A DNA stretch of 59,859 nucleotides from the NCBI GenBank assembly GCA_036788695.1, contig DAIQMY010000001.1, positions 1 through 59,859 of the forward strand, read 5' to 3'. Below, piece by piece: positions 11,809-54,770 of this stretch. The stretch is from Candidatus Levyibacteriota bacterium. Its GTDB lineage: Bacteria > Patescibacteriota > Microgenomatia > Levybacterales > GWA1-39-11. The translations under genes were made by a program, and so were the position numbers. The notes under the pieces are model-generated. The model did no database searches. It had not been told where the DNA came from and saw only the letters and a list, made by a program, of their open reading frames with translations. Each line of letters begins with the position of its first letter. Positions within the stretch are counted from its first letter, which is position 1.

Positions 11809-13040
11809 CTAGACTTTTTCACTTTCCCCCGTAAGAATACAGTAACTCCCAGGGCAAAAAAATAATATGATAGAAGAAACGGAATAGATATAGTTGAAAA
11901 TTCAAAAAGAGGAAATGATCCAAAAAAGCCGGTAATCATTTCAAAATATAAAAGAAGAGGATAAGAAATATAGAGGACTGGAACTGATACAATAGGTAAA
12001 GTAATAGCACAAACTGCTGCAATTCCCCCTAAAATCATAAGAAACGGAATTGTCCAAAGTACAAGAGCGTTCGCAAGTATAGAAACGAAAGAGTACGAAC
12101 CAAATACCCCTGCCATAACAGGCAAGCTTCCTATTTGGGACGCAATAGAAGTTGTAATATCATCTGAAAATATTTTTGTATTTTTAAATCTCCACAGTGA
12201 ATCGAATAATGGTTTACAGAAAACAATCCCAAGAGTTGAAGTAAAAGAAAGCAAAAATCCAACATCAAAAATTATCTCCGGTTGAACAAAAAGCATAAGC
12301 CAGGCGGTTATACAAAGAGCAAAAATGCCTGAATTTTGCCTCCCAAGTATTCCTGCGCTAAATGCTACACTTGCCATAACGCTTGCCCTCACAATAGAAG
12401 GAGAAAAGCCAGATAACAAAGCGTAGTAAAAAACCCCAAATATCGCGATTACTAATGCTTGCCTTCTCATAAGAAAACGTGAAAATAACGCTATCAGAAA
12501 GGATGCAACCATAGTAACATTCATTCCAGATGCAGCAACCACATGCAAAACTCCTGCATTTTTAAATGAAGACTTTGTATCTGATGTGAAGTCCTGACTC
12601 CCCCCAAAAACAATTCCAAATAAAAGCGCTGCCTCATTTTGAGGCAAATAGGAAAAGAATGTTTTAGAAATTCGTGTTCGTATGTATGACGCAGTTCTAA
12701 AAAATATGTTTGTGCTCTTTGTGCTCTTTATGACCGGGTTATGAATAACTAGATAGCTTACTACTTTCTTATTCTTTGCTTCAAATGATTCCTTATCAAC
12801 TATACCCTCTATATATATTTCGTCACCGTAGTGGACTTCATTCTCTTGTGGTATACGAATTTGAACTGATGAGACAGAAAAGGTCTTGACAAATTTATTA
12901 TTCTTCGGCTCTGAAAGAAGGGTAATTTTTTCTTGTAATGTGTCCCCGGGTAAATACTTTTTTTCATACGTAAAAAAGAATGCATACCTAATCCCCAAAG
13001 TTAAAAGGAGCACTATACAAATCAGGATAATGAATTTCAT
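11805..13040 (-). CDS. comEC: ComEC/Rec2 competence membrane protein
   Basis: GVLHVVAASGMNV, SIVRASVM, GFLLSF; lacks a fused MBL domain. Confidence 0.92.
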   Translation of the reverse strand: MKFIILICIVLLLTLGIRYAFFFTYEKKYLPGDTLQEKITLLSEPKNNKFVKTFSVSSVQIRIPQENEVHYGDEIYIEGIVDKESFEAKNKKVVSYLVIHNPVIKSTKSTNIFFRTASYIRTRISKTFFSYLPQNEAALLFGIVFGGSQDFTSDTKSSFKNAGVLHVVAASGMNVTMVASFLIALFSRFLMRRQALVIAIFGVFYYALLSGFSPSIVRASVMASVAFSAGILGRQNSGIFALCITAWLMLFVQPEIIFDVGFLLSFTSTLGIVFCKPLFDSLWRFKNTKIFSDDITTSIASQIGSLPVMAGVFGSYSFVSILANALVLWTIPFLMILGGIAAVCAITLPIVSVPVLYISYPLLLYFEMITGFFGSFPLFEFSTISIPFLLSYYFFALGVTVFLRGKVKKSR

Positions 13041-13046: not shown

Positions 13047-13673
13047 TCATGGGCTGATCAGATCTTTTATTTTTGAAAATGTAGCAGCGCCTACTATTTT
13101 TTTTGAAAGCAATTCATCAACAGATGCGTATGGTCTTCCTCCAATTATTTTCTGAGCAGTAACGGAACCTACCCCAGGAAGTGACTCTAGCTCAGATTGA
13201 GATGAGGCGTTAATGCTAACTAAGCTACTGCTTGTTTTATCCATGAAAACTTGCGTATTTGATTGAGGAATTTGAGTTTCTCCTGCTTTAGGAATATATA
13301 TCTTTGCCTCGTCTTTTACTATTGCAGCAAGATTAATAGATTTTGAGACATACTCATAGTCTGCTAGGGTGGTTATTCCTCCGGCGGCATCTAAGGCATC
13401 TTGGATACGGGAACTACTTTTTAATCGGTAAACGCCAGGATTTACTACCTCTCCTGAAACATCTACCATAATTTCTGTTTCTTTTTTTTCAGTTGATAAT
13501 CCTTTTACCTCCTCCTCTGATTTAAATTCTATCTTACCACTCGGACTTAAAAGAAATTGGATCAAACCAATACTTAAGAATATCAAACCACCGGCTACCA
13601 AAGCTGAGAAAAGTAAATTTTGCCGTATTAAGATTAGGACGCTTTCACCTATTGAATTTGTTTCTTTATCCAC
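13047..13673 (-). CDS. comEA: ComEA DNA-binding protein (SLBB + HhH)
   Basis: VDVSGEVVNPGVY, INASSQSELESLPGVGSVTAQKII. Confidence 0.93.
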   Translation of the reverse strand: MDKETNSIGESVLILIRQNLLFSALVAGGLIFLSIGLIQFLLSPSGKIEFKSEEEVKGLSTEKKETEIMVDVSGEVVNPGVYRLKSSSRIQDALDAAGGITTLADYEYVSKSINLAAIVKDEAKIYIPKAGETQIPQSNTQVFMDKTSSSLVSINASSQSELESLPGVGSVTAQKIIGGRPYASVDELLSKKIVGAATFSKIKDLISP

Positions 13674-13740: not shown

Positions 13741-16700
13741 CTAGATTACGAAGTTTATAATTTTGAGAGGTATATAAATAGTTTTTTTAATTTCAGCTTC
13801 CGAAAGATACTTATCTACCTCTATCCGTGCTTGGTTTTCTAAATAGGTACGATCAGGCATTGGTTCCTCAACTTTTATTACCATTTCACCTCGTTTTTTC
13901 CCGTTTACTTGGATTACTATAGTTATCTGCTCTGAGGCAAGATACTTTTCATCCCACTCTGGCCACCCTGACAGATGAATTGAATCTTTTTGACTTAACA
14001 CACTATGCCACAACTCATCAGTCATAAACGGTGCAAACGGTGCAAGCAGCTTTAAAAATACTTCTGCCTCTTGTCTTGAAACCTCTTTATGGCTAGATAA
14101 AAAATTGTACCACTCCATAAGCCCTGCAATTGCAGTGTTATATTTAAATTCTGATATATCCTGCGTTACTCTCTTTATAGTCTTATGCATCATCCCTAAA
14201 CCTTCATCTGAAAGCTTAAAATCAGTAACAATTGAAAACTTCTTCCATACTCGTCTGATAAACCGATTCATACCCTCAATTCCTGAATCTCTGAAATCTC
14301 CGCCATCTGAGAAGGGACCTAAAAACATTAAGTATGCTCGAAGCGTATCAGCTCCATATTTCAGAATATATTCATCAGGCACCACTACGTTCCCTTTTGA
14401 TTTGCTCATTTTCGCTCCATCCTTAATAATAAGCCCATGAGCAAAAAAACTTTCAAAAGGTTCTTCAAAATCCACAAATTTTAAATCGTACAGTACCATC
14501 GATATAAATCGACTATATAAAAGGTGTAGCACTGAATGCTCTGCTCCGCCAATATACTTTTTAACAGGAAGCCAACGTTTTTGGATGGTTTTATCCCATG
14601 GAGTAAAATCTTTTTGATCTATTTTGATACCTCTGGATATACTTTTTGCATTTTTGTTATCACCAGTTATGAGAGGGTCTGAGATATAACCCAAGAAATA
14701 CCATGCACTATCCAGAAAAGTATCAGACACATCTGTTTCACGCTTTGCCTTACCATTACAGGAAGGGCAACTCGTTTCATAAAATTCAGGATGATTCGCA
14801 AGAGGAGAAAGCCCAGTACCCATTGGCTTCCAATCATCTACGTCAGGAAGTGCTATGGGTAAATCCTCAAGTGGCGCGGAAAACCATCCAGGCATTTCAA
14901 TTTTTTCCCCTTTACCAGATTTTTTACATGATTCACAAAATATCATAGGAATTGGTGGACCCCAATATCTCTGTCTTGAAATAAGCCAGTCACGTAAATG
15001 GTACTGAACCTTCTTTTGACCAATACCAGCTTCTATTAATTTGTTTACTACAGTATTCATGCCCTCAGCCACTTGCAACCCATTCCAAGCGCCAGAGTTA
15101 ATTAGCTTTCCTTCTCCCACATAAGCTCCCAGTTCAAGATTTGAATCTTTTGCTGTTATAACTTCTCTTATAGGAAGCTTGTGTTTTTTTGCAAAATCAT
15201 AATCTCTTTGATCATGTGCAGGAACTGCCATAATCGCACCTGTCCCATACCCCATGAGTACATAGTCTGCTACCCAGACTGGAATTTTCTCGTTATTTAT
15301 AGGATTTATCACATACTGACCTGAGAAAACACCTGTCTTTTCCTTTTCATCAGCAGTCCTTTCATTTTCTGACTTATTGTGTGCCCTTTTTACATATTCT
15401 GATACTTTATTCTCCACTCCCTCTCTGAGAAGTGAAGAGACAAATGGGTGCTCGGGAGATACGACAAGGAATGTTGCACCAAATAAAGTATCCGGACGAG
15501 TTGTAAAGACTTCAATTGAAGGAAGAAGGTGTTTTACTATTTCCGGTTCTGTCTCACCGGATAGATGATCTCCCTGTGCTACTACTTCAATAATCTTCCC
15601 GCCTATCTTTTCTCTTATAAAGTCCGCCCTTCCACCCGGAACGGCTGTATCATTAAGTGCTTTGAGTAATATAACTTCCCCCGCATTCTTTTTTATTTTT
15701 TCAAAATCAAACTTCCAATCAAATGTTTCCTCAAATGGTCTTTTATGATCCAGGAAGCCTGGCTCGGCAAAACCTGCTGCAAGCACTAAGCCACGAATGG
15801 GAACATCTAATCTTTCTACTACTTTTAAGGCAATAACTGATCCCAAGCTGTGACCAAATAAAATTGTATCTGCATCAAAAGAGTAATTATCTATAACATA
15901 CTGTACCTGCTCATCAACTGTTGGATTTTCTGTTTTTGGGAGGTTTGGAACCATTACAGTATGTCCCTTTTTCTCCAACTCAGCCTTAAGCCAAGGATGG
16001 AAGTTAGATGTAGAATCAGCGCCAAAACCATGAAGGTTGATAAATCGGTACTTTTTATCTATTGGGAACTCTATCACTGCACCAGTCTTTCTGCCAATCC
16101 AGTTACGTTGGGAAATTTTCACCTTCTCAGTCCAATCTAATGTCTCAATATTCTGAAGAAGTCTTTCCGCATAATCTGTAATTTTAAAAAACCATTGTTC
16201 TAAGTCTTTTTTTTCAACTACAGAAGAACAACGTTCGCATTTCCCATCAATTACCTGCTCGTCAGACAATACCGTCTTGCAGGATGGGCACCAATTCACT
16301 TCTGCTTTCTTACGGTATGCCAAGCCTGCTTGAAACAATTTTATAAATAACCACTGTGTCCATCTATAATATAAAGGATCATATGTCTCCAAGGTCCTAC
16401 TCCAGTCAAATGAGTTGCCAATACTCCTTAACTGTCTGTAATAGTTCTCCTGAGAAAGCTTTGCTTGATCTTTGGGGTGACGCCCCACCTTGAGGGCATA
16501 GTTTTCTGAATGAATCCCAAATCCGTCTAAACCGATTGGCTCAAAAACGTCACTCCCCTTCATTCTATTAAACCGAGCGTATACATCAGCACCCGTAAAG
16601 GCATACATATTCCCCACATGAAGCCCTTCCGCAGAAGGGTAAGGGAACATCATTAAGTTAAAATAAGGTTTACTAGCGTTGAGTAAATCAGGCGTAAATG

Positions 16701-16770
16701 TTTTATCACTCTCCCATTTACTCTGCCATTTAGCCTCGATTTCCTGATGATTATAGGATAAATCCTTCAT
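13741..16770 (-). CDS. leuS: leucine--tRNA ligase with inserted alpha/beta hydrolase domain
   Basis: MFPYPSAEGLHVGN, FTTRPDTLFG, GTGAIMAVPAHDQRD, KMSKS; insert at about 15520-16053 contains GHSLG. Confidence 0.97.
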   Translation of the reverse strand: MKDLSYNHQEIEAKWQSKWESDKTFTPDLLNASKPYFNLMMFPYPSAEGLHVGNMYAFTGADVYARFNRMKGSDVFEPIGLDGFGIHSENYALKVGRHPKDQAKLSQENYYRQLRSIGNSFDWSRTLETYDPLYYRWTQWLFIKLFQAGLAYRKKAEVNWCPSCKTVLSDEQVIDGKCERCSSVVEKKDLEQWFFKITDYAERLLQNIETLDWTEKVKISQRNWIGRKTGAVIEFPIDKKYRFINLHGFGADSTSNFHPWLKAELEKKGHTVMVPNLPKTENPTVDEQVQYVIDNYSFDADTILFGHSLGSVIALKVVERLDVPIRGLVLAAGFAEPGFLDHKRPFEETFDWKFDFEKIKKNAGEVILLKALNDTAVPGGRADFIREKIGGKIIEVVAQGDHLSGETEPEIVKHLLPSIEVFTTRPDTLFGATFLVVSPEHPFVSSLLREGVENKVSEYVKRAHNKSENERTADEKEKTGVFSGQYVINPINNEKIPVWVADYVLMGYGTGAIMAVPAHDQRDYDFAKKHKLPIREVITAKDSNLELGAYVGEGKLINSGAWNGLQVAEGMNTVVNKLIEAGIGQKKVQYHLRDWLISRQRYWGPPIPMIFCESCKKSGKGEKIEMPGWFSAPLEDLPIALPDVDDWKPMGTGLSPLANHPEFYETSCPSCNGKAKRETDVSDTFLDSAWYFLGYISDPLITGDNKNAKSISRGIKIDQKDFTPWDKTIQKRWLPVKKYIGGAEHSVLHLLYSRFISMVLYDLKFVDFEEPFESFFAHGLIIKDGAKMSKSKGNVVVPDEYILKYGADTLRAYLMFLGPFSDGGDFRDSGIEGMNRFIRRVWKKFSIVTDFKLSDEGLGMMHKTIKRVTQDISEFKYNTAIAGLMEWYNFLSSHKEVSRQEAEVFLKLLAPFAPFMTDELWHSVLSQKDSIHLSGWPEWDEKYLASEQITIVIQVNGKKRGEMVIKVEEPMPDRTYLENQARIEVDKYLSEAEIKKTIYIPLKIINFVI

Positions 16771-16864
16771 AGATATTTTCAAGTATAGCATGCCTGCATT
16801 TATTTCTAAATACCTAAAGGGTAATTTGCTTGCAGATTTATCTTTTTGTGAATATAATTTATAT

Positions 16865-17473
16865 ATGAAATACCTAACACAAAGCGCGGTGCTTCTTCTC
16901 TCTACAGTTTTTGTATTAATAGTTGCTGAAACTCCCCTTTCCCCCTATATCCCTGCCTTTCTTATCTTAATAGGTATAGTCAGCACTATTTATACAATTA
17001 TCTTAAAACGAAAACGCCGCGGCCAAGAAGTATTTCTAGGCAACAACAAAGAGGTATTTACTATTATTGTGTTTGTGCTTCTCATAATCTTTCTGACAGG
17101 TGGAATACGCTCACCTATCTTTTTTCTAACTTATTTTATCTTCTTTGGTCTTGCATTTATTTTTGAGCCTGTAATGATCTTTTTCTTTCTCCTGTGTCTT
17201 GTTGGAATATTTGTTCCTCAAGCGATACAGGATGATGTATTTGGTAATATTTTGAAACTGTTATCTCTTCTCTTTTTATCTCCAATTGCGTACTTCTTTG
17301 GGAGGGAATATAAACGTCGCGAGAGAATACAGCAAAAAATTAAAGATTCAACTGAAATTATTATAGATGAAGCAAAAGATATGATAAAAGCAAAAGATAA
17401 GAATGAAAGATTAAGAAAAGCAGAAGATATAATTGAAGTTGCACATGAACTACAAAAAGAAACAAAGCAATAA
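16865..17473 (+). CDS. hypothetical integral membrane protein with coiled-coil tail
   Basis: Several hydrophobic segments and a charged C-terminus; TATAAT lies 6 nt before ATG 16865. Confidence 0.75.
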   Translation: MKYLTQSAVLLLSTVFVLIVAETPLSPYIPAFLILIGIVSTIYTIILKRKRRGQEVFLGNNKEVFTIIVFVLLIIFLTGGIRSPIFFLTYFIFFGLAFIFEPVMIFFFLLCLVGIFVPQAIQDDVFGNILKLLSLLFLSPIAYFFGREYKRRERIQQKIKDSTEIIIDEAKDMIKAKDKNERLRKAEDIIEVAHELQKETKQ

Positions 17474-18177
17474 TGAATAAGGCGATCCTTATACTCCCAT
17501 TTGTTCTAGGATTTGTTGCGTCAAGGGCATATGCTGCACCTATGTCAAACTCTGACTACTTTTTAAACTTAGAAATGAGCACTACAGAGGAATATATTAA
17601 GCCTGCAGACAAGAGCCTTCCCGCACCTGAAGTGCCAAAAGCAAACCAGATTACGGGAGATGGTTATATTATTATTTTCACGCCAGAAAACGAAGAGATA
17701 AAACCGCTTTCCATCTCAAGCACTAACAATAGTATCAATTTTGGAGAAATAATCCCAGGAGAACCTCTTACACGTACTCAATCTATTACCGTACATCCTG
17801 CGACAAATAAGGGTTTTCAATTGATGGGATATGAAGACCATAGCCCTTCACAAGGAGAATTTTCAATTCCAGATACATCATGTGATTCTGGAAATTGTAA
17901 CAATACGCTATCTGAATCCTGGGAAAACCCCTTAACTTATGGCTTTGGCTATTCTTGTTCTAACGTTGAAACAAAAACGTGCGATAATGGTTTTAGTGAT
18001 AACAGATACAAAAGCTTTTCAAATGATTCCGCATTAGAAGAGCCCAAGACCATACTTGAATCAGATACAAGCAGCGTTGCAAAAGCGGTAATAACCTACA
18101 AGCTAAACATACCAGGCACACAACCTCAAAAAGCGTATCGCAATACAGTATATCTTATTGCCGTGCCTAAATTATAA
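17473..18177 (+). CDS. secreted WxL-like surface protein
   Basis: Signal peptide (AYA-A), INFGEI, YGFGYSC, ITYKLNI...YRNTVYLIAVP pattern; family assignment is an inference. Confidence 0.6.
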   Translation: MNKAILILPFVLGFVASRAYAAPMSNSDYFLNLEMSTTEEYIKPADKSLPAPEVPKANQITGDGYIIIFTPENEEIKPLSISSTNNSINFGEIIPGEPLTRTQSITVHPATNKGFQLMGYEDHSPSQGEFSIPDTSCDSGNCNNTLSESWENPLTYGFGYSCSNVETKTCDNGFSDNRYKSFSNDSALEEPKTILESDTSSVAKAVITYKLNIPGTQPQKAYRNTVYLIAVPKL

Positions 18178-18425
18178 ATAGTATTGATTTATCAACCTAA
18201 ATTATACTATATATTTCTTGTCACTAAATTAAATAGATTGCCAAAATTCACTGAATTCTCAAGCTCATTTAGTTGTTACATTTTGATATATTTAGTATTC
18301 CCTCAGCATATATATCATTTTTACCGCTTAACGTGGCTAATTTCTAAAATATTTCTACTATTTAGAGGGTTGTGGAGGTTAAATTATCACTTCACTTTTT
18401 ACTGTTGCTATACTACACTATATAT

Positions 18426-19382
18426 ATGGATAAAAAAATACGCATCCTCTCTGTACCTCTCATGATGACTCTACCTGTTGGCTACGCCTACGCCGAAGAT
18501 ACCTCTATGAGTGTTTACCCCGCAATTATGCAAATAAAAGCAAATCCAAGCTCATATGTATCAGCACCTATATCCATAAGAAATAATGCTAAGGAAGCAG
18601 TAACCCTAGATGTTCTACTTCGCCCTTTTACGTCTGAGCCTAACAGAACAGGGTCTGTTTCATTTGTGCCATCAGGTCAAGTATCAAAGGCAGAATCAGA
18701 ATTCATAAATGGAATAAAAATACTTGATGAAGATAAAGAAGTTAAATCTATCAATCTATATCCTAATGAATCTAAAAACCTACTGGTTACCTTTACCGCA
18801 CCAGGCAAACCTATGGATTATTATCTGTCGCTTATCTTTATTTCAAAACCGCAAGCCACGGATAGCACAAGCAAAGATACTACCACAACAGTAACAACTG
18901 GAATTGGAACAAATATGCTCATATCTATACAAAACGCTAAACAAAAAGCTTCAGGTGTAATTACCGAATTTGAGGCTAGCAAATTTGTTATAAATAGCAC
19001 ACCATCTATGGAGCTTCTGGTAACCAACACGGGTAATACATACGCCTCTGTAAACGGTACAATATCAATTTATAATATCTTTGGGAAGCAGATAGCATCA
19101 ATACCCCTGAAACAGACATTCCTGCTTGCTAAAGAATCAAGAAATTTAACTACAGTATTACCGCAAACAGTCAGAAATAATATAGTTTGGGACCAAAAAT
19201 TTCTTCTGGGAGCATATAAAGCTAAAGCGACTGTTACATTTGATAATGTTTATACTACCCGCGCAGAAAGCATGTTTTTCTCAATCCCTCTTCTTATACT
19301 TCTACTCGTAAGCGTTATCCTATGTGTCATTCTTGGAGTTCTATTTCAAGTAGTGAATAAACTTAACTTTAAAAGCAAATAG
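18426..19382 (+). CDS. DUF916/WxL-interacting-like protein with C-terminal TM anchor
   Basis: Signal peptide, beta-rich Ig-like domains (ISIRN, VTNTGN, GAYKAKATV), C-terminal TM plus basic tail; TACACT lies 6 nt before ATG 18426. Confidence 0.6.
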   Translation: MDKKIRILSVPLMMTLPVGYAYAEDTSMSVYPAIMQIKANPSSYVSAPISIRNNAKEAVTLDVLLRPFTSEPNRTGSVSFVPSGQVSKAESEFINGIKILDEDKEVKSINLYPNESKNLLVTFTAPGKPMDYYLSLIFISKPQATDSTSKDTTTTVTTGIGTNMLISIQNAKQKASGVITEFEASKFVINSTPSMELLVTNTGNTYASVNGTISIYNIFGKQIASIPLKQTFLLAKESRNLTTVLPQTVRNNIVWDQKFLLGAYKAKATVTFDNVYTTRAESMFFSIPLLILLLVSVILCVILGVLFQVVNKLNFKSK

Positions 19383-19915
19383 AATTCAAATTGTGTTCCC
19401 AAATCAATCTGATATAATCTTCCCTCATAGTAGCAGTCTATAAAATAAGTGCTAAAACACGCTTTGGATATAGACTTATGAAGATTATTTTACCCCTTTT
19501 CTAACCATAAGTATTGCGCCCACTTGTCCTACTTCATTCATATTTTTAACAACTAGATAAAATAGGTCATTTGAGGATTTATAACAAATGATTTATTCTG
19601 ATATATTAATACATATATATAGTGATTTATTATTTGCTTATGAATATTCGTGAAAAAGCTTAAGGATGGCATAGGCATGGCTAATTTTTCACAGGTACGC
19701 AATATGATTTTGGTAAAACTTAAACATATACTACTGTATCAACTTACTTGATTTGTCATTGACAGTCATAACGTGAATGTACTACGCTTATTTATACGCG
19801 GATATAATTAATATAATGTGTATAATCTCGAGGCTAAGGAGCTTATACGGGAATTAAATATTTATTACCGCATTACTTCACTGTCTTAACTTACAGGAAG
19901 TGAATTTATTATTCC

Positions 19916-22900
19916 ATGAACATAGAACAACTTATTGGACAGTACAAAACTTATCTTTTAAGTAATCACTCTAAGATTACTGCGAAGAACTATGTTTCAG
20001 ACATTAATCACTTTGTTACGTGGTTTGCTAACAATTACAATACAGTGTTTTGTGCTGATTTATTAACATTAAATATCATTACTGCCTATAAGGAGCACAT
20101 TCAATCACAGTCAAACTCGCCAGAACACCAATATAGCTATAAGTCGGCAAGCAGGCACCTTTCAAGTCTCAGATCTTTTACTTCATACCTAGTATACGCA
20201 GAACTTATTCCCGAAAACCCATTCAAGGTACAGGCAGAAAATCAATCGGCTTCAGATCCATGGAGCTTAAAGGGATTTAAAAACTTTCTATACTCACAAC
20301 GCTCAAGTGATCTAACTGTAAAATACTATATCAATGATATACAAGGGTTCAGCAAGTGGTATGAAGAAACTGTTGGCAGCATAAAAACAGAAAACACACC
20401 AAATCTTAACGCTGAAATTTTCACTGAGTACTCAAGAAGACTTAACACCACACTTCTTCTTTCTCCAAGGACCGTAAACAGAAAACTCTCAAGCCTTAGA
20501 CGATATACCTCATATCTTCATTTACAAAACAGGATAGATGAAAAGATTACAGTCCCATCCCAAGTAAGTCCAGAAAGTACTGTTACTTTAAACGATATGG
20601 TAGTTCATACACCAACAGAACAATACTCTAAAATACCACCTGTGAGACTGGCACAAAGAATAACCCGACCATATCTCAAACTTGAAAACGCAGCAGCTGA
20701 CCTGATATCAGCTCAGATAATTAAAACAAAGTTGAGAAAAGCGTTTGAGAAAAATGGAATAAATAAAAAACAACCGCTAGATAGCATATTGCAGGGACTA
20801 AGCAATAATAATATAAAAAAGGAATTCTATGCCCCCTATAGCATCTCTACTCAAGAGTTTTCATTAAGAAAAAAAGCATATCATCATCTAAAACACACAA
20901 GGCCTGAATGGTATAAAAAGTATCATACCTATCCATTTGTCCATTATCTACATCTTGGAATACTAGTAGTGGCAGCTGTCTCCTCTGCTTTTTATCTTTA
21001 TTACAATACCATAGGGAATGCTAACGCAACAAATACACAAGCAAAAAAGATAATGCAAAAAACATTTGCGTTCAAAGGGAAACTTTTAGATAAAAATAAC
21101 AAACCCATTACCCAAGTAACAGACTTGAGACTTGGACTCTATACAAATCCTACTGCTAGCGGGAGTGCGCTTGCATGGCAAGAAGTTCAAACTGGAATAA
21201 AACCTGATGAGAATGGGAATATAAGCATTATCATAGGAAACAGAAATGAATTACCGCAACCTCTTATAGACTCTAATACTCCTCTCTACCTTGGGGTAAC
21301 TGTTGGTACAGATTCTGAGCTGGCACCTCGTCAACAAATTGGGACATCTTTCGCAAACACAGCAAACAGTGTACAAGGATTATTGCCGATTACAAATGCA
21401 AATAGACAGACAAACGTACTTCTGGCACTAGATGCAAGCGGGGTACTTTCTATTGGAGGTAGCGCAAATCCAATTTTTACGGCAAGCGGCGGTCAGTTTA
21501 CCTTATCAGGAAATACTATCCTACTTACCACAAACCCTGGGAGCAACGGAAATATTATTATAAATCCTTCAGAGAATGGAAAAATTGATCTTCAAAAACC
21601 GCTTATTAACAGCCAGGGAGAAATTCTTGCAGAAGGTGGACTCATTATTCATGCAACAACAAGCGCAAAATCAGCACTTACAATACAACAAGACATGGGA
21701 GGACCATTTATTACAGCCTCAACCTCTGGTCAAACCAGATTTCAAGTTGATAGCCAAGGAACAATTACTCATGGTAATTGGGCGGGAAACCCCATAAGTC
21801 CTGAATTTGGAGGATTCGGTGCAAATATAACTCCTGCAACACCCGGGGAAATACTCTATTCAATAAACACAACATCCTATGGTCATCTACGACCAGGAAC
21901 AGCCGGTCAGTGTCTTACGACAAATGGATATGCCGCACCACTTTGGAGCTCCTGCGGATTTCTTTCTCAGCTAAATGGTGCATTAACGCTTACTAATAAT
22001 ACGTTTGATATAGTTTTAGGCGGAAATTCAACTGATAGTGCAAAGTTTGTTTTTTCAAATATGAGCACCGGAACACCGCTTCTCAAAATTGGAAAGTCAC
22101 TTCTCCTAGGAGGGAACACTCTCTACACAAACGGAGAAGACTTAAGGCTTGGAACAGGTGAAACAAAAAATATACTCCTTGCCCAGGCAGGAAATGTGGG
22201 AATAAACTCCTCATCACCTACCCGCACGTTAGATGTAAATGGAACATGGGGAGGAAACGTTGACTTTTACAGTGATGGGGAAGGAAGTAGAACTATTACA
22301 AGAGACACAAAAGCTCTTATCTATGACCTTGAGAAAAGTACAGGAAGTTATAATCTGGACTCAGAAACTACATACAATATAACAGCACTACCAAATACTG
22401 AAGGAACTTTTGCCTATATATATACAAAGGTGGAAAAAGGAGCAACCTCTGACCCTGTAACACAAAAAATTTTCATACAGGTAAATGGAACACAAGTAGG
22501 TTTAGTGTCAACGAACAACACAACAAATTCTTATAAAAGCATAGAACACTACACGCTTACAAGAAGTAACAATACATGGCACCTCTTAGGAGATACCGGA
22601 ACAACAAATGACGCAGCAGATCTTGCTGAATGGACTAAATATGAAGGGAAGCATCCTCTATCAGGAAATTTAGTTAGTATAGGAATAAATGGAAAACTAG
22701 TACTATCACGTATTCCTTATGATTCAAAAATTGCAGGAGTTGTTTCAACAAAGCCTCATATAACAATAGGAGCACAGTATAAGGATACCACTCCGCTTGC
22801 GCTCTCAGGAAGAATACCTGCAATTGTTATGTCATTTAACGGTTCCATATCCGCGGGAGAGACAATCACATCCTCTCCAATTCCCGGAGTAGGAATGAGG

Positions 22901-24541
22901 ATGAAAAAATCAGGAGCTACCGTTGGAAAAACACTTGAACCATTTATTCCTGATACTTCTTGTAAAACAGTTGCCTCCCTTGAAAGTATCAAATGGCCAG
23001 ATGATGATGGGAAGAACACAAGCCGTCCATGCTTTAAGGTACCAGTTTCATCATTTGACTCGCTCACAATGACTTATCTAGCACAGTATGGGCTTTCTTA
23101 TGTAGACTACTTATATATAGGTAAAGTTATGATCCTTTCAAATCTCTCATGGTCAAATAATGAGGATCTTATTGCATCAGTTAATTCCGCAACCATAGCT
23201 GATAATACTATGCCCATTTCCGCGCTTGATCCATCCCTTGCAGCAACCATGGAAACACTTAACGCATCTACTCCAAGCGTTTTTGTTTCCGGTGAGGCTT
23301 TTCAAAATGTGGCTGCATTCTCAGGGGTTATTGCAGGGAAAATAAAAGCAGGAATTATCACGGCACAATATATTGCATCGGAAAATATTGCGGCGTCATA
23401 TGCCAAAATAACAAATCTTAGTGTTCAGAATAGCATCACAGCTGCAACAATCACATCTCCTCTTATTGAAGGAGATAGTGTAAAAACAAATTCTATTAGC
23501 CCAAGAAATACCACGGATCTTGCAATAAAACTTCCTACAAAAAACTCAAAAGTAAAAATACAAGATCAATCAGGAGAAACTGTTTCTGAAATAGATGCAA
23601 GCGGAAACGCATCGTTTTCAGGAACTATTAACTCGCAGGCACTTAACACAGATGGTGCGACCATCTCAGGAACACTACGAACACAAAATTTAATTGCAGA
23701 TAATATCGAAGGTCTTTCTGATACTGTCGCAAGCATTACTTCAAAAATTGTGAATAATTTAAAACCTGTAGAAAACAAGCAGTTGCCTCATTTATCTGAA
23801 ACACTTGCGCAGTCATCAGTCTCTGCACAATTTGGAACATTCTACCAGGGACTTTTATCCTTAGGCGCATCTACATTCGGAGATTTATCTGTTATGGATC
23901 AGCTATCAATTGGAACTACCTTTATATTCTCAGGAAACTCAATAAATACCCTTGGCACAGACCTTGCAATACAACCACTTAAACAAGGCGCAGTATCATT
24001 TCTTGCAGGAGCGGTACGCATAGAAGCGGATGGACAACTGTTTGTAAATGAGAATGCGATATTCAATAAAAATCTAAGCGTTAGAGGAAAACTCATGACA
24101 AATATTATATCTCCTCTTCCCGACTCAGACCTATCATTACAGCTACCTTCTGGAGGTCAAAAGGATGCAAAACTAGTAGTTAAAAATGCAAGCAACTCAG
24201 CGGTGCTCAGTATATCTTCGCGGGGAGATATTCACGCATCAGGATCTGCCACAATATCAAAGCTTAACTTTAATATTGTAGGACAAGCACTTGCCTCAGG
24301 CGAATATACCGCTAGCGCAAGTTCTTCTGCAGGAACTGCCATTATTAAAGCGGGTACAAATGAACTTACTATACTAAATCCTCTTGTAACACGCGATTCT
24401 CTTATTTATATTACGCCTGCACAAAACACAAATAATAATGTTCTTTATCTCATGCGGCAATCAGCAGGGGAAAGTTTTACCGTTGGGATATCTCAAGTTG
24501 TTCAATCTGATACGTTATTCAATTGGCTTATTGTAAATTAA
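19916..24541 (+). CDS. giant membrane protein: two integrase N-terminal core-binding domains, TM helix, fibre-like ectodomain
   Basis: TAKNYVSDINHF/SASRHLSSLRSF and TVKYYINDIQGF/TVNRKLSSLRRY; TM at about aa 345-365; AADLAE...GVVSTKP...ALSGR chaperone-like segment; no R-H-R-Y catalytic set recognised. Confidence 0.85.
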   Translation: MNIEQLIGQYKTYLLSNHSKITAKNYVSDINHFVTWFANNYNTVFCADLLTLNIITAYKEHIQSQSNSPEHQYSYKSASRHLSSLRSFTSYLVYAELIPENPFKVQAENQSASDPWSLKGFKNFLYSQRSSDLTVKYYINDIQGFSKWYEETVGSIKTENTPNLNAEIFTEYSRRLNTTLLLSPRTVNRKLSSLRRYTSYLHLQNRIDEKITVPSQVSPESTVTLNDMVVHTPTEQYSKIPPVRLAQRITRPYLKLENAAADLISAQIIKTKLRKAFEKNGINKKQPLDSILQGLSNNNIKKEFYAPYSISTQEFSLRKKAYHHLKHTRPEWYKKYHTYPFVHYLHLGILVVAAVSSAFYLYYNTIGNANATNTQAKKIMQKTFAFKGKLLDKNNKPITQVTDLRLGLYTNPTASGSALAWQEVQTGIKPDENGNISIIIGNRNELPQPLIDSNTPLYLGVTVGTDSELAPRQQIGTSFANTANSVQGLLPITNANRQTNVLLALDASGVLSIGGSANPIFTASGGQFTLSGNTILLTTNPGSNGNIIINPSENGKIDLQKPLINSQGEILAEGGLIIHATTSAKSALTIQQDMGGPFITASTSGQTRFQVDSQGTITHGNWAGNPISPEFGGFGANITPATPGEILYSINTTSYGHLRPGTAGQCLTTNGYAAPLWSSCGFLSQLNGALTLTNNTFDIVLGGNSTDSAKFVFSNMSTGTPLLKIGKSLLLGGNTLYTNGEDLRLGTGETKNILLAQAGNVGINSSSPTRTLDVNGTWGGNVDFYSDGEGSRTITRDTKALIYDLEKSTGSYNLDSETTYNITALPNTEGTFAYIYTKVEKGATSDPVTQKIFIQVNGTQVGLVSTNNTTNSYKSIEHYTLTRSNNTWHLLGDTGTTNDAADLAEWTKYEGKHPLSGNLVSIGINGKLVLSRIPYDSKIAGVVSTKPHITIGAQYKDTTPLALSGRIPAIVMSFNGSISAGETITSSPIPGVGMRMKKSGATVGKTLEPFIPDTSCKTVASLESIKWPDDDGKNTSRPCFKVPVSSFDSLTMTYLAQYGLSYVDYLYIGKVMILSNLSWSNNEDLIASVNSATIADNTMPISALDPSLAATMETLNASTPSVFVSGEAFQNVAAFSGVIAGKIKAGIITAQYIASENIAASYAKITNLSVQNSITAATITSPLIEGDSVKTNSISPRNTTDLAIKLPTKNSKVKIQDQSGETVSEIDASGNASFSGTINSQALNTDGATISGTLRTQNLIADNIEGLSDTVASITSKIVNNLKPVENKQLPHLSETLAQSSVSAQFGTFYQGLLSLGASTFGDLSVMDQLSIGTTFIFSGNSINTLGTDLAIQPLKQGAVSFLAGAVRIEADGQLFVNENAIFNKNLSVRGKLMTNIISPLPDSDLSLQLPSGGQKDAKLVVKNASNSAVLSISSRGDIHASGSATISKLNFNIVGQALASGEYTASASSSAGTAIIKAGTNELTILNPLVTRDSLIYITPAQNTNNNVLYLMRQSAGESFTVGISQVVQSDTLFNWLIVN

Positions 24542-24682: not shown

Positions 24683-26788
24683 ATGAATGAAAAAGAAGTC
24701 ATTAGCATTTTAAGAAAAGTAAGCATAGCAGTACTTAGTATTGTATTTTTTGCGTTTCCTCTTTTATTCCTTACAACTACAACAGATCCCTTTATTCTTC
24801 CAAGACAAATTTTTATAGTCATCACAGCTTCCCTGTTAGTATTTCTCTGGGCAGTTATATCAGTAGTTCAGAAAAAAATTATAATCCGAACAAATCCATT
24901 TACTCTCCCACTCGCCATATTTACTACTATCATTATTGTTTCGGCTATATTATCTCGGAATATGTATGACTCTCTTGCAGTAAGCATACCGGTACTTGCA
25001 TGCTTCCTTCTCTATTTTGTTACTATACACATAGTCTCCTCAAGAAAAGATTTCCTATTTATTGGAGGAAGTCTTCTTATAGGGGCTGTTCTAACTACCG
25101 TACTATCTATACTTTACTATTTCAAAATATATGTACTTCCCATATCTCAAACACATAATCAGTACTTCACCACATTTGGCTCACCAATTCAACACATCTT
25201 ATACATTCTCCCTCTCTTTATTATCTGTCTTCTAGCAGTACTATCTCTTATAAAAGGGAAGTTTACAAAGATTAACTACGAACAATTATTTAATTTGATT
25301 TCTGGATCTATATTACTTATCGGAGTAGGACTCATTGCATACCAAATCCTAACCGTTTCACAAAAACCAAACCTCCTCCCCTATACCTATGGCTTCCAAA
25401 TCGCAACAGCTGCAATTAGCCAGGACTCTAACAGGTTTCTTCTTGCCCTGCCTTTTGGATCAGGATATGGAACATTTTTATCTGACTATACTCGCTTTAA
25501 ATTCCCAAGCATAAATAACAATCCTACCTTATGGAACTTTCAGTTTACCTATTCATCATCTTTTGTCTTGGAACTACTCGCAACTACTGGAGTATTAGGT
25601 TTTCTCTCTTACCTGTTTGTTGTGTTCCGAGTGCTTAAAAACAGATCAAAAAACTCCACCCCACTCTTTTTAGGCATACTATCCATACTTATTCTCTCAT
25701 TTTTCCTTCCATTCTCGCTTTCAGAAGTATTTCTCCTTTTCATACTCATAGGTCTTTATACAGCTTCTCTATTCCTAGCAAATGATAAGAGAGTTGATTC
25801 TGTACGAATTTCACTTGTTGCACTCAAAGAAGGTCTTATCTCAATGGAAGAAACCCAAGACCCTGACCGAAAATACAAAAAGGATAGTAGAGTTCTTCCG
25901 GGACTATTTGCGCTCATCGTGCTACTTGTAGGCGGTTATATCTCATACCTTTCTATTCAACTTCTTATTGCTGATACAAAGATGGCAAAATCCTTATCTC
26001 AACCTGCGAATACAAAGCTTGACATAATATATGACCTCCAAAGAGAAGCACTTATGACTTATCCATATAGAAGTGACTACTATAGAATTTTCTCTCAATT
26101 GAACCTAGGACTTGCAACATCCATATCCCAAGGTATACCTCAGGGCACTCAGCCTTCCGCTCAAATACAGCAGACAGTATCACAGTTATTAAGACAGGCA
26201 GTTGATAATGGAAGAACAGCTGTTGCAATTGCTCCTGTTACAGCAGTTAACTGGGAAAATCTGGCAGGAATCTATAGAAACCTTATTGGAGTTGGACAGA
26301 ACGCAGATCAATTTTCAATTGCAACATTAAACCAGGCAATCGCCCTAGATCCATCTAACCCTGTATTAAGAGTGGAACTTGGGGGTATTTACTACGCTCT
26401 TCAACAATATGATGCAGCACAAACCCAATTTGCACAAGCTATACAATTAAAACCAGACTTTGCAAACGCTTATTATAATCTTGGTCATGCACTGGAAGCA
26501 AAGGGAGATCTAAACTCAGCACTCTCAGCCTATCAGTCAGCACTAAGTCTGGTTCAAAATAATCCACAGGATAAAACGGCACTTCAAAAAGAAATTGATG
26601 TTCTTACAGAAAAAATTGGCGATAAAGGCGACTCAAACGGACAAGCAAACGTTCCTGGAAACGCAGAGAATCAGCCACCACTTGGGCTAACTGCTCCTAC
26701 TACAGTTCCATCAGTTACTGGACAAGTTAAGGTTCCACCACCACCAACCGGATCAGTCAGTACTCCAACTCCTTCAACAACGCAATAA
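24683..26788 (+). CDS. polytopic membrane protein (O-antigen ligase-like) with C-terminal TPRs
   Basis: About 12 TM segments, GSGYGTF and LELLATTGVLG motifs, TPR-like helices (AIQLKPDFANAYYNLG), Pro/Thr-rich tail. Confidence 0.8.
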   Translation: MNEKEVISILRKVSIAVLSIVFFAFPLLFLTTTTDPFILPRQIFIVITASLLVFLWAVISVVQKKIIIRTNPFTLPLAIFTTIIIVSAILSRNMYDSLAVSIPVLACFLLYFVTIHIVSSRKDFLFIGGSLLIGAVLTTVLSILYYFKIYVLPISQTHNQYFTTFGSPIQHILYILPLFIICLLAVLSLIKGKFTKINYEQLFNLISGSILLIGVGLIAYQILTVSQKPNLLPYTYGFQIATAAISQDSNRFLLALPFGSGYGTFLSDYTRFKFPSINNNPTLWNFQFTYSSSFVLELLATTGVLGFLSYLFVVFRVLKNRSKNSTPLFLGILSILILSFFLPFSLSEVFLLFILIGLYTASLFLANDKRVDSVRISLVALKEGLISMEETQDPDRKYKKDSRVLPGLFALIVLLVGGYISYLSIQLLIADTKMAKSLSQPANTKLDIIYDLQREALMTYPYRSDYYRIFSQLNLGLATSISQGIPQGTQPSAQIQQTVSQLLRQAVDNGRTAVAIAPVTAVNWENLAGIYRNLIGVGQNADQFSIATLNQAIALDPSNPVLRVELGGIYYALQQYDAAQTQFAQAIQLKPDFANAYYNLGHALEAKGDLNSALSAYQSALSLVQNNPQDKTALQKEIDVLTEKIGDKGDSNGQANVPGNAENQPPLGLTAPTTVPSVTGQVKVPPPPTGSVSTPTPSTTQ

Positions 26789-27991: not shown

Positions 27992-28021
27992 GCACTACTT
28001 TTGGATATACGCTGCAAGAAT

Positions 28022-28536
28022 TTAGCCTAAGGTTAATAAAAACTCATTGTTATCTGAAAGAAACGATGAAACCCTAGTCTTTTCCGAGGTTTAGTAAGAA
28101 CACATTGTTATCTGGAGCGTAGCGGAAGAAACGATGATACCCTACCTAATCTTTGCCTAAATTCAATAAAAACTCATCGTTATCTGAAAGAAACGATGAA
28201 ACCCTAGTCTTTTCCGAGGTTTAATAAGAACACATTGTTATCCGAAGGAAAGGATGAAAACCTAATCTTTGCCTAAATTAAGTAAAAATTCATCGTTATC
28301 CGAAGGAAAGGATGATTACCCTAGTCTTTTCCGAGGTTTAATAGAAATTCATCGTTATCTGAAAGAAACGATGATACTCTAAGAAGTTTAATAAAAATTC
28401 ATCGTTATCCGAAGGAAAGGATGATTACCCTAGTCTTTTCCGAGGTTTAATAGAAATTCATTGTTATCTGGAGCGTAGCGGAAGAAACGATGAAACCCTA
28501 GTCTTTTCCGAGGTTTAATAAGAATTCATCGTTATC
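28022..28536 (-). repeat. tandem array of rho 3'-end copies with hairpin spacers (gene tail plus 8 copies)
   Basis: Units at 28022-28054, 28074-28112, 28146-28184, 28204-28242, 28262-28300, 28321-28359, 28379-28409, 28430-28468 and the gene tail 28498-28536; spacers 19-33 nt. Confidence 0.97.
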
Positions 28537-29805
28537 CTCAGTCTTACTTAATCGTTCTATAAGCACTTCTGCTCGTTCGTCTGGACTCAAAACATCAATC
28601 ATGCGTCTCATCATTACAACCTTTTTCAGCTTATCTTCAGGCATTAAAAGCTCTTCTTGGCGTGTGCCTGACTTCTCTACGTTAATAGCTGGAAATACGC
28701 GTCTTTCAGCAAGTCTTCTGTCTAAATGAAGCTCCATGTTTCCCGTACCCTTAAACTCCTCAAAAACTAAATCATCTAATCTGGAACCTGTGTCTACCAG
28801 TGCCGTACCTATTATAGTAAGGGATCCTCCATCTTCACAATTTCTAGCAGCCCCAAAGAACCGTTTTGTTGGATAAAGAGCAGCAGGATCATATCCTCCT
28901 GAAAGTGTGCGTCCGGATGGCTCAATTGACAAATTATATGCGCGAGCAAGCCTGGTAATTGAGTCTAGAAGAATAACCACGTGCTTACCATTCTCAACTA
29001 ATCTCTTTGCCCGATCTAGGGCAATCTCCGCAACTCTTGTCTGAATTTCAGGTGATTCATCAAAATTTGAGGCTACTACATCACCTTTGACGGAACGTGC
29101 GATATCTGTTACCTCTTCAGGGCGCTCTCCTATTAAGACCGCCATTAAATGAACGTCTGGGAAATTAGCGATAATACCTGAGGCTATATCCTTCAAAATA
29201 GTGGTTTTTCCAGCCTTAGGAGGTGATACAATCATACCTCTCTGTCCAAATCCAATAGGCGCGACTAAATCAATAATACGTGTTGAGAGTGGATATTTTT
29301 TAGTTGATAACTTGATCTGTGTATTTGGGTAGATAGGTGTTAAATCCTCAAAATAAGGTCTTTTTGTAGACTTATCTGCATCTACTCCGTTTACTCTGTT
29401 GATTTTCAATAATCCATAATACCGCTCGTTGTCTTTTGGTGGACGCCCTAAGCCCTCAACTAAATCCCCCGGTCTGAGCCAAAAACGACGAATTTGTGAA
29501 GATGATATATAGATATCATGATCTGATGGTCTGAATTTTGGCCTCAAAAAACCATGCCCTTCATGTTGAATATCTAAAATTCCGGAAACCACTTCTGTGC
29601 CTTCATCTCTATCCTGCGCACTCATATTGTTCTCACGGACGAAACCTTGATTTCTATCTTCAATTACTGGTTCTTCTCTGGGTGAAACTTGAGCTTGATC
29701 CATATTCCCTGACACTACACCTTCTGTGCCTGTATCCTGAGGAGCTGAGCCTATTGGGGCATCATTAGATGCTAATTTTCTAGTTGTTCGTTTTGTGTAT
29801 GGCAT
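28498..29805 (-). CDS. rho: transcription termination factor Rho
   Basis: GILDI...[47 protein letters not shown]. Confidence 0.98.
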
Positions 29806-54701: not shown

Positions 54702-54770
54702 CTCAAGGGCAAAACTTTTCAAACAAACTTCAAACTTATTCTTTCCTACCATTTGGTTTCTTAAAACCCA

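Follow-up and report, generated by a model that had tools for sequence, protein, structure and literature searches.

What use might a cell make of a protein with the DNA-recognition domains of a recombinase at one end, a phage-like fibre at the other and a membrane helix in between? The question is raised by the open reading frame (ORF) at positions 19916-24541 (+ strand) of contig DAIQMY010000001.1 (assembly GCA_036788695.1, Candidatus Levyibacteriota bacterium), of which a stretch of 59,859 nucleotides (nt) was analysed (hereafter, the window). The window is a chromosomal, low-GC (~38%) stretch from a bacterium belonging to the Candidate Phyla Radiation (CPR), and it carries genes for leucyl-tRNA synthetase (LeuRS), ComEA/ComEC, Rho and enolase, a 23S-5S rRNA unit and three tRNAs. 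The ORF was confirmed at exactly these coordinates, and its product of 1541 amino acids (aa; hereafter, the fibre protein) is a single-pass envelope protein encoded on a Levybacteria (CPR/Patescibacteria) chromosome. It consists of two core-binding (SAM-like) domains, a linker, a transmembrane (TM) helix and a phage-fibre-like ectodomain of ~1176 aa with an internal chaperone module. The answer that we favour, although we rate it slightly below an even chance, is that the protein forms a trimeric fibre for host contact and binds DNA, likely at its own promoter, through its cytoplasmic domain pair, as a TM regulator of the ToxR/CadC kind. A first-pass annotation of the sequence had proposed a trans-envelope device tying DNA to a fibre; this general idea is still the best reading, while the specific tethering and transfer roles that it suggested are unsupported.

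The part of the protein up to and including the membrane anchor is divided as follows.

19922-20197 (+): SAM-like/core-binding domain 1, aa 3-94, from PF13495/PF02899, the XerC/XerD N-terminal models, AlphaFold2 (AF2) and Foldseek.
20267-20524 (+): SAM-like/core-binding domain 2, aa 118-203, with the best PF02899 stretch at aa 118-202 and four helices in AF2.
20525-20815 (+): predicted cytoplasmic linker, with a YSxxPPVRLxQK motif at aa 237-249 and a long helix at aa 241-279, from the alignment of 110 homologs and AF2.
20816-20932 (+): juxtamembrane motif, basic and His/Tyr-rich, aa 301-339, K.FYAP..S...HKK..H.RHTRPxWYKxYH.
20933-21010 (+): predicted single TM helix, aa 340-365, of the signal-anchor type with the N-terminus inside, from hydropathy, AF2 and the positive-inside rule.

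Both the sequence and the predicted fold mark the N-terminal pair as genuine core-binding domains. PF02899 (Phage_int_SAM_1) matched the fibre protein in two stretches (E=1.6e-13, 51 bits, Pfam cut-off 22.3), and a PF13495 match on aa 16-97 fell below the Pfam cut-off. The NCBIfam models of XerC/XerD were matched only at positions ~5-97 of ~295, which is the core-binding part, with nothing matched past position ~100. AF2, run with a 20-sequence alignment, predicted two four-helix domains at aa 3-94 and 118-203 with a predicted local distance difference test score (pLDDT) of ~90. The top Foldseek matches in the PDB were all recombinase core-binding domains (2kiw, IntI 2a3v, Brujita Int 5vfz, XerA 5hxy, Tn1549 Int, lambda Int and Cre), with probabilities of ~1 and with E-values that were weak (0.07-1) because the query was multi-domain. 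A whole-protein, single-sequence search of solved structures returned nothing meaningful, and a family profile was needed. The profiles and the fold thus bear out the tandem domains that the first-pass annotation had read from sequence motifs, all of which are present (T22AKNY...D29I..F33, A78SRHLSSLRSF and T186VNRKLSSLR).

The same annotation had seen no recognisable catalytic domain, and PF00589 indeed had no match at E<=1 in the fibre protein, nor did it occur in the Pfam lists of all 114 homologs from the first database search. In the AF2 model, aa 204-339, where the catalytic domain would be, form a helical linker that leads into the TM helix. Because this defining domain was not found, the fibre protein cannot recombine DNA and is not an integrase; the database name 'site-specific integrase' is wrong for the family. 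The protein shares the core-binding domains with XerC/XerD and other tyrosine recombinases, but it is a membrane protein and is without the catalytic domain, the RKHRH residues and the tyrosine nucleophile.

The best PDB sequence match of the SAM-like profile (positions 3-98) was chain 14 of a ribosome entry, 9i5v (401 aa, E=8e-8). This chain is labelled 'Ribosome-associated translation inhibitor RaiA', yet its N-terminus resembles a recombinase core-binding domain; either it is mislabelled, or it hints that core-binding-like domains can contact RNA.

The protein is predicted to cross the membrane once. The sole Kyte-Doolittle peak above 1.6 lies at aa 341 (value 1.79), AF2 predicted a helix at aa 340-365 (pLDDT 88-92), and a second strongly hydrophobic segment was found in only 22 of 212 family members; the linker segment is more hydrophobic in ~10% of members. 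Across the 212 members, Lys and Arg residues averaged 3.8 in the 20 residues before the TM helix and 1.9 after it, with more before than after in 83%. Because of this positive-inside bias, and because no signal peptide precedes the 340 aa before the TM helix, we predict a cytoplasmic N-terminus and a fibre that lies outside. The ~1170 aa of Gly/Ser/Thr/Asn-rich beta sequence that the first-pass annotation had placed after a single TM helix are, on our count, 1176 residues, in which these four amino acids make up 32-48% of every 100 aa.

This is the layout of ToxR, CadC and TcpP, regulators that bind DNA while membrane-integrated (PMC5430869, PMC8546550): a cytoplasmic N-terminal DNA-binding module (predicted here), one TM helix and, beyond the cytoplasm, a C-terminal domain exposed to the environment. 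The parts themselves differ. The cytoplasmic module is a duplicated recombinase core-binding domain here and an OmpR-type winged helix in ToxR, and the outside part is a fibre of >1100 aa (up to ~5600 aa) with a phage chaperone, whereas ToxR has a small sensor.

In the alignment of 110 homologs, the core-binding domains are the best-conserved part of the protein. The invariant residues are N25, Y26, D29, F33, W36, R80 and L85 in domain 1, and K136, Y138, D141, W148, N188, R189, K190, L191, S192 and R195 in domain 2. The invariant residues that are exposed and polar or basic lie on two motif helices (T22/K24/N25, R80/S83/S84/R86, K136 and N188/R189/K190/S192/S193/R195), and in recombinases these two helices contact DNA. 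Conservation is also high next to the membrane, where P307, R329, P330, W332, Y333 and Y336 are invariant and H337, H343, Y344 and H346 nearly so (consensus TRPxWYKxYHxYxxVHYxHF). Such an invariant juxtamembrane/TM motif suggests protein-protein contacts within the membrane, and it favours a different account, in which the protein is purely a surface fibre or adhesin. The SAM-like pair would then be an exapted module that docks proteins rather than DNA (the neighbouring membrane protein p227, the secretion/assembly machinery or a cytoskeletal element), and a conserved repeat upstream of the gene, described below, would be a promoter. The tight synteny of the gene with membrane and secreted partners points the same way. 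We consider this account unlikely, though far from negligible, and the placing of the invariant polar and basic residues on the DNA-contacting helices speaks against it and for a pair that binds DNA.

A regulator that reaches from the surface to DNA presupposes that the fusion is genuine. The first database search returned 114 homologs on independent contigs, nearly all of them 1300-1700 aa and some 2400-2700 aa long. All have the same N-terminal Pfam content, and their database names include 'site-specific integrase', 'XerD' and 'tail fiber domain-containing protein'. A profile of the N-terminal 445 aa detected 380 representatives (clusters at 50% identity) at E<=1e-30, with total lengths of up to 6048 aa. 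A relative is encoded at no fewer than, and thus at least, 148 loci in species-representative genomes; many of these records carry placeholder names, and the informative labels are almost all Levybacteria or Patescibacteria. The closest relatives are found in Levybacteria metagenome-assembled genomes. The names 'site-specific integrase' and 'XerD', together with an in-frame TAG that splits the second SAM-like domain in one Woesebacteria relative, could be taken to indicate an artefact, whether an assembly error, an ORF fusion or a degenerate integrase pseudogene whose frame runs on into the fibre gene next to it. Such an artefact would have to recur across hundreds of independent contigs, produced by many assemblers from many samples, in which the architecture is uninterrupted, including the linker, the juxtamembrane motif and the TM helix; moreover, the N-terminal module is the best-conserved one and the synteny is stable. 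The artefact reading is almost certainly wrong and effectively excluded, and the first-pass annotation's concern about a chimeric ORF falls away with it.

A prophage or phage-gene origin was also considered and rejected: the neighbours are housekeeping genes, viral contigs (IMG/VR) contain no full N-terminal module, and a tblastn search found no phage match to the C-terminal module. The fibre gene is cellular, not viral.

Two observations concern individual relatives. In the Woesebacteria relative (L087:973-1560), the in-frame TAG yields a 170-aa ORF and a 2271-aa TM-fibre ORF that begins five codons later. The protein was found on four contigs, with the junction read in L087 only, and the TAG could be a nonsense mutation, a readthrough site or the mark of a genuinely split gene. 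In many fibre genes, both of the SAM type and of the MerR type described next, CTGCCC directly precedes the ATG in place of a recognisable Shine-Dalgarno sequence (L002, L006, L009, L013, L018, L025, L029, L047 and L062); the window copy does not have it.

A parallel family bears directly on whether the cytoplasmic pair binds DNA. At one locus, the gene adjoining the SAM-type gene (L002:12329-17794) encodes a protein of 1821 aa with two MerR/HTH_17 domains, a Pro-rich linker, one TM helix, a long fibre and a Peptidase_S74 domain. A search with this protein retrieved ~40 giant proteins from Woese-, Davies-, Ames- and Levybacteria, labelled 'MerR family transcriptional regulator' in the database. 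They form a separate family (P0235-P0289), in some cases encoded beside the SAM-type gene; they are 1,000-3,000 aa long, often with two copies of MerR/HTH_17 and with S74, Kelch, FG-GAP or CBM domains at the C-terminus, and exactly one strong TM helix, at aa 70-240, was found in 36 of the 38 examined. Because two unrelated DNA-binding folds have been recruited to the same position before a TM helix and a fibre, DNA binding appears to be the selected property. If the pair served only to dock proteins, the recruitment of two unrelated and usually duplicated DNA-binding folds to one position would be hard to explain.

A second line of support for a DNA-binding pair lies upstream of the gene, where two elements are conserved.

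19686-19693 (+): TTTTCACA motif, the second conserved upstream word, with a -35-like TTCACA.
19802-19837 (+): upstream cis element, candidate -10 region and/or operator, of three tandem 9-bp units with TATAAT at 19803, 19812 and 19821, followed by CTCGAGGCTAA.

Within the 530-nt upstream spacer, the proximal 260 nt are >90% identical to those of the closest relative and the distal half is ~50% identical. The 9-bp unit word GTATAATC was found in 63 of 77 upstream regions, compared with at most 13 after shuffling. TTTTCACA, conserved between the window and L005, was present in 51 of the 77, against no more than 13 for any 8-mer after shuffling, and its position relative to the triple repeat varies among loci. 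Of 76 related loci, 69 have a tandem TATAAT-N3-5-TATAAT upstream of the fibre gene; 852 kb of sequence (both strands) contained 99 such tandems in all, of which 83 sit at this place. In an anchored alignment, the period of the units is 9 bp in 116 of 122 spacings (consensus nATAAtnnGTATAATCnGTATAATcTCGagGCTaa), the consensus ends a median of 57 nt before the ATG, and the G and C flanking each TATAAT are conserved. Elsewhere in the window, GTATAATC has one more copy only, on the other strand at 11083. The repeat also precedes the SAM module of a Woesebacteria relative, whereas two single-SAM variants lack it, as do five fibre genes of the MerR type, whose promoters are of the ordinary TTGACA-N17-19 form. 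Its two best-conserved units correspond in number to the two core-binding domains, and across the family the units and the polar residues on the two motif helices alike are nearly invariant, which is a correlation. A promoter scan found no canonical -35/-10 pair for the fibre gene, manual reading found no well-spaced -35 for any of the three TATAAT units, and Rfam had no known RNA in the conserved 5' region. The perfect -10 hexamers in the repeat would suit a plain promoter in front of a plain adhesin, but RNA polymerase alone does not account for the conserved G and C around each hexamer or for a period held strictly at 9 bp. The idea that the protein links DNA to the fibre is strengthened by the parallel MerR-type family and by this conserved repeat upstream of the protein's own gene.

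For the MerR-type genes, a MerR-style dyad operator was tried and rejected: TTGAC-N6-GTCAA occurs in L002 and is not conserved in four other loci.

The repeat also bears on the roles in chromosome tethering and DNA transfer that the first-pass annotation had offered. The pair would in that case bind dif-like or repeat sites, and would either hold the nucleoid at the host-contact site or aid DNA uptake. The domains do derive from Xer-type recombinases, which recognise dif; the GTATAAT units may bear a loose resemblance to the AT-rich inner part of the dif arms; and ComEA/ComEC genes are present in the window, 7-9 kb away. Over the 80 related loci, however, ComEA is within reach in 5 and ComEC in 1, no dif-like site or matching repeat family occurs elsewhere in the window, and the sole conserved candidate site is the gene's own promoter. 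The hairpin array at 28007-28537, presumably the 'hairpin-tail repeats' to which the first-pass annotation had speculatively tied the protein, is unrelated to the upstream element, with which its units share nothing in sequence. Tethering or trafficking is improbable enough that we give it little weight, and we retain the gene's own promoter as the likeliest target of the pair.

The array itself, between an M23 peptidase gene and the 3' end of rho, repeats a ~58-nt unit about seven times, and each unit contains an inverted repeat (AACGATGA...TCATCGTT); short related copies lie at 6163-6251. ComEC is present as two ORFs on the - strand that overlap by 4 nt, one with the Competence domain (11805-13040) and one with the metallo-beta-lactamase domain (10957-11808), and ComEA (13047-13673) adjoins them (10957-13040 together).

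Outside the membrane, the following parts were distinguished.

21065-21340 (+): membrane-proximal beta-sandwich base, aa 384-475, AF2 pLDDT 66-89.
21341-22279 (+): Gly/Ser/Thr/Asn-rich fibre shaft, aa 476-788, which varies in length and sequence across the family.
22280-22618 (+): globular beta domain before the predicted cleavage site, aa 789-901, AF2 pLDDT 70-84.
22619-23122 (+): putative phi29 gp12-type (Peptidase_G2) chaperone/autocleavage module, aa 902 to ~1069.
23123-24538 (+): post-chaperone C-terminal module, aa 1070-1541, with a terminal beta domain at aa 1459-1541 (nt 24290-24538).

Sequence comparison across the family indicates that both ends are conserved and the shaft varies. 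A hidden Markov model (HMM) of aa 380-444 matched 224 of 233 family members and one of the C-terminal 100 aa matched 190 of the 200 long members (>=1200 aa), while most homologs cover only ~40% of the query. In the base, the motif FxGxLxD..PI...LWxE...PDxxGxF that follows the TM helix is conserved in the 110-homolog alignment and belongs to the beta-sandwich. A large-database search with aa 380-640 gave one weak match. The AF2 monomer is confident only in its base sandwich, at aa 789-1069 and over the C-terminal 85 aa (pLDDT 80-89). The family profile matched fibre proteins of Bdellovibrio (8ond bd2133 with E=3.9e-7 in three stretches; 8on4, 8oml and 8ol4 with E 0.009-0.03), and profile and fold matches together reached trimeric fibres (8ond, T4 gp34, pyocin fibres and tailspikes).

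The MAT (mosaic adhesive trimer) proteins of Bdellovibrio bacteriovorus are alike in being cell-encoded, phage-tail-fibre-like trimeric fibres (the trimer is by analogy here) with a conserved cell-proximal module and a mosaic shaft, in versions with and without an autoproteolytic chaperone, and they too belong to a bacterium that lives on other bacteria. They begin with a signal peptide, followed by a conserved beta domain of ~130 aa, and are without a TM anchor or cytoplasmic part (PMC10769870), whereas the N-terminus here consists of two helical domains and a TM anchor. The post-TM beta-sandwich had no match to MAT chains by profile search or Foldseek. MAT proteins also have a variable C-terminal tip and a terminal S74, in contrast to the conserved C-terminal module and internal chaperone of the fibre protein (PMC10769870). 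The latter is thus MAT- or phage-fibre-like on the outside and ToxR-type in topology, and is a member of neither family.

The chaperone-like segment noted in the first-pass annotation was recovered (AADLAE at 900, GVVSTKP at 941, ALSGR at 962 and VGKTLE at 1003), and homologs gave it a family. PF11962 (Peptidase_G2) scored 26-36 bits, above its cut-off of 25, in P0021, P0025, P0043 and P0048, in a block that aligned to aa 900-1008 of the window protein, and full-length homologs match PF11962 or PF13884. The family profile matched the phi29 gp12 autochaperone fragment 3gqh from its residue 1 (DFAEYF; E=1.8e-5) and also the chaperone domain of the Dpo31 tailspike. Pre-mature gp12 (3suc) was the best PDB match of the ectodomain model in Foldseek, and a BFVD comparison yielded 109 matches at E<=0.001, some of them to models named 'preneck appendage protein barrel'. 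In the DxAE motif at aa 902-905 (D-L-A-E-W), D902 and E905 are invariant in alignments of 14 and 26 sequences and align to D1 and E4 of 3gqh; we take their counterparts to have catalytic roles in cleavage. Because mature gp12* ends at residue 691 (PMC6542822) and the profile match starts at residue 1 of 3gqh, D902 corresponds to the residue with which the fragment released from gp12 begins. If cleavage occurs there, the aa 789-901 domain would be the distal tip of the membrane-anchored product.

Across the family, the HMM of this G2-like block matched 150 of 233 members, 148 of them among the 200 of >=1200 aa, and an S74-like motif was found in 21 of the 200. In all 148, the distance from the start of the block to the C-terminus is 418-722 aa (median 620) and does not depend on the length of the protein. 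The likeness to phi29 gp12 and phage tailspikes (the S74 endosialidase type and Dpo31 D4) extends to a homologous chaperone block that opens with D-[FLY]-A-E-[YW] at the gp12 cleavage position and to a fibre or spike upstream of it. In the phage proteins, however, the module is C-terminal and discarded, whereas ~470 conserved residues follow it here, and the fibre protein is chromosomal, membrane-anchored and absent from viral collections. The C-terminal module gave a weak profile match to lambda J aa 952-999. The possibility that this module is pilin-like and joins a PamT-like protein by donor-strand exchange received no support (profile-profile comparison, probability 0.1%).

An autoproteolytic module with a conserved catalytic motif in the ectodomain invites another explanation, a transcription factor released by a signal in the style of Notch, RsgI or MyRF. 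After autocleavage, contact or force would shed the distal part, the TM helix would be cut by an intramembrane protease and the SAM-like pair would become soluble and regulate genes. The precedent is the eukaryotic MyRF, a membrane transcription factor activated by cleavage, in which a chaperone domain of phage type is joined to a DNA-binding domain and a TM helix (PMC8326128), and the juxtamembrane motif of the fibre protein could be a protease or regulatory site. No protein type other than MyRF/MrfA has been described in which a DNA-binding domain and a TM helix occur together with a trimerising autocleavage domain of phage type, and in MyRF it is through this trimerisation that the DNA-binding domains are arranged (PMC8326128). 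The order of the parts is what separates the two. MyRF runs from DNA-binding domain to chaperone to TM helix, with everything on the cytoplasmic side, and its cleavage frees the factor (PMC8326128); here the putative DNA-binding domains (aa 3-203), the TM helix (340-365), the fibre and the chaperone (902-1069) follow each other across the membrane, so that cleavage in the chaperone cannot free the domains. The cleavage-release mechanism does not transfer directly, because the MyRF chaperone is on the same side as its DNA-binding domain. The folds differ as well, MyRF having an Ndt80-type DNA-binding domain and an S74 chaperone where the fibre protein has core-binding domains and a module of the G2 type. 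A search confined to the window identified no site-2 protease, and in very small cells a tethered regulator can, by our own reasoning, probably reach the nucleoid unreleased. We regard signal release as quite improbable.

The account that we favour, a fibre that regulates while it stays anchored, would then work as follows. The chaperone module would drive trimerisation outside the cell and would probably cleave at A901/D902, leaving a membrane-anchored trimeric fibre for contact with a host cell or substrate. Trimerisation would gather three core-binding pairs under the membrane, where the pairs would bind double-stranded DNA, most likely where two to three 9-bp GTATAATC repeats coincide with the -10-like region in the promoter of the gene itself. 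In the manner of ToxR and CadC, transcription of the gene would thereby respond to how much fibre is present or how far it is assembled, and, as a by-product, the locus could be held at the membrane while the giant protein is inserted.

Several points weigh against this account. DNA binding by the core-binding pair is something that we infer from sequence, and the coupling of fibre events to the activity of the cytoplasmic domains is a proposal; an isolated recombinase core-binding domain binds DNA weakly and normally acts together with the catalytic domain, and the weak binding counts in favour of a protein-docking role for the pair. The repeat, with its perfect TATAAT hexamers, may be an unusual conserved promoter or the site of another regulator, and the contrast with the single-SAM variants comprises two loci. 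In a metagenome-wide scan for the bare 17-mer, 14 of 99 usable matches preceded a SAM-fibre gene, and the others were mostly microsatellite-like arrays and coding DNA; the short 17-mer was rejected as a diagnostic outside the lineage, and the evidential weight of the repeat is its within-lineage specificity, not uniqueness. On the outer side, the trimeric state is assigned by analogy with relatives. In the AF2 monomer of aa 380-1541, the shaft has a mean pLDDT of 55 and falls below 50 over most of its length, as expected for a trimeric fibre. The window protein itself lies below the Pfam reporting threshold for PF11962, homology is the sole basis for predicting the scissile bond A901/D902, and, with 640 aa following D902, the chaperone module has an internal rather than a C-terminal position.

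A wider version, possible but on the unlikely side, would make the fibre protein one of a class of 'fibre-to-DNA' proteins in ultra-small episymbiotic CPR bacteria, with recombinase-derived pairs in Levybacteria and MerR/HTH_17 pairs in Microgenomates, and with a dedicated triple 9-bp operator for the recombinase-derived pair. In this class, the sensing of contact or assembly would set transcription, or the gene would be held at the insertion site for the co-assembly of its three chains.

The neighbourhood of the fibre gene places it in a surface structure. Gene counts were made over the 80 related loci, and those for p227, LeuRS and TPR701 are limited by the available flank.

16790-17473 (+): p227, membrane protein with 5 TM segments and a charged C-terminal tail, from hydropathy; upstream in the same orientation in 33/80 loci.
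17473-18177 (+): p234, putative secreted PamT-like/Pam-pilin-like protein with a signal peptide; upstream in 59/80 loci.
18372-19382 (+): p336, signal peptide, ~270 aa of beta-rich sequence and a C-terminal TM helix; upstream in 64/80 loci.
24683-26788 (+): TPR701, ~11 TM segments and C-terminal tetratricopeptide (TPR) repeats, from TPR matches and hydropathy; downstream in 26/80 loci.

The locus is syntenic among relatives that share only ~30-35% identity, and a divergent LeuRS gene stands upstream in 39 of the loci; the fibre gene belongs to a conserved surface-structure neighbourhood. A Pfam search at E<=10 gave nothing useful for the window copies of p227, p234 and p336. The window p234 matched NF058581 weakly over nearly the full model (E=0.006, below the curated cut-off), and among 14 orthologs CPR_Pam_pilin_C was matched in 13 (best 1.7e-8) and CPR_pilus_PamT in 10 (best E=4e-12). 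For p336, the orthologs showed weak PF06030 matches and no PDB or NCBIfam sequence match was found; from its layout, it is a candidate membrane-anchored chaperone of the PamC/PamD type. The L087 ortholog of TPR701 weakly matched PF04932 (Wzy_C), so the protein is possibly O-antigen-ligase-like and may glycosylate or otherwise process the Ser/Thr-rich fibre. TPR701 ends in a Pro/Thr/Ser-rich tail.

The Pam pilus is a CPR-specific structure of donor-strand-exchange pilins with PapD-like chaperones that carry a C-terminal TM helix (bioRxiv 10.64898/2026.03.03.709456, a June 2026 preprint). According to one sentence of the same preprint, pam operons are consistently accompanied by a 'tail fibre-like protein', for which its main text gives neither an accession nor a description (bioRxiv 10.64898/2026.03.03.709456). 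The fibre gene is a candidate for the 'tail-fibre-like' partner of a minimal pam-type pilus cluster, its identity with the protein of the preprint being putative. The cluster resembles the Pam pilus of CPR bacteria in its conserved upstream PamT/Pam-pilin-like protein and in the candidate chaperone-like protein with a C-terminal TM helix. It differs in being minimal in Levybacteria, with one pilin-like gene and no PamA/B-type major pilins identified at the locus, and in that the fibre shows no similarity to the pilin fold by profile-profile comparison. This pam-type neighbourhood, the internal position of the chaperone module and the conservation of the C-terminal module all go beyond the first-pass annotation.

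Further features of the window stand apart from the fibre gene. The LeuRS gene (13741-16791, - strand; 1015 aa) has alpha/beta-hydrolase matches at aa 248-406 (Abhydrolase_1 with E=8e-7, and Ser_hydrolase), which suggests that a hydrolase-like domain is inserted between the first stretch of the catalytic core and the editing domain. The 23S rRNA match at 54582-58505 (- strand) covers 3360 nt against a 2925-nt model, which implies an insertion of ~430 nt; it is flanked by 5S and tRNA-Ala, with no 16S between tRNA-Ala and the end of the window. Two ORFs, 33644-36718 (+; 1024 aa) and 44841-46625 (+; 594 aa), have no Pfam or NCBIfam match, and the latter sits in an A-rich block that shares its AT-skew signature with the fibre gene. 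A second pam cluster or more fibre genes in this A-rich 44-48 kb block were looked for and rejected, as it contains enolase, phosphoglycerate mutase and an ABC transporter.

To our knowledge, little is understood of the way in which CPR/Patescibacteria recognise their hosts and stay attached to them, and pili are the only surface structures characterised so far. Literature searches found no description of the SAM-TM-fibre architecture, the parallel MerR-type family, the internal chaperone layout or the upstream repeat. The fibre family (~380 clusters at 50% identity) is a concrete and widespread candidate for a host-contact fibre in Levybacteria, and its conserved ends, variable shaft and internal chaperone module are unusual for fibre biology. 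Entries misnamed as integrases or regulators inflate the counts of mobile-element genes and of regulators in CPR genomes. If the binding is real, the names of hundreds of 'site-specific integrase/XerD' or 'MerR family transcriptional regulator' entries would have to be corrected, and the fibre protein and its repeat would provide a protein-operator pair open to testing, in organisms whose regulation is almost uncharacterised. It would also be, if true, the first known non-recombination role of a tyrosine-recombinase core-binding domain, as a sequence-specific regulator. The predicted cytoplasmic DNA-binding domains and the conserved repeat suggest a very short signalling path in these cells, from the cell surface to a promoter.

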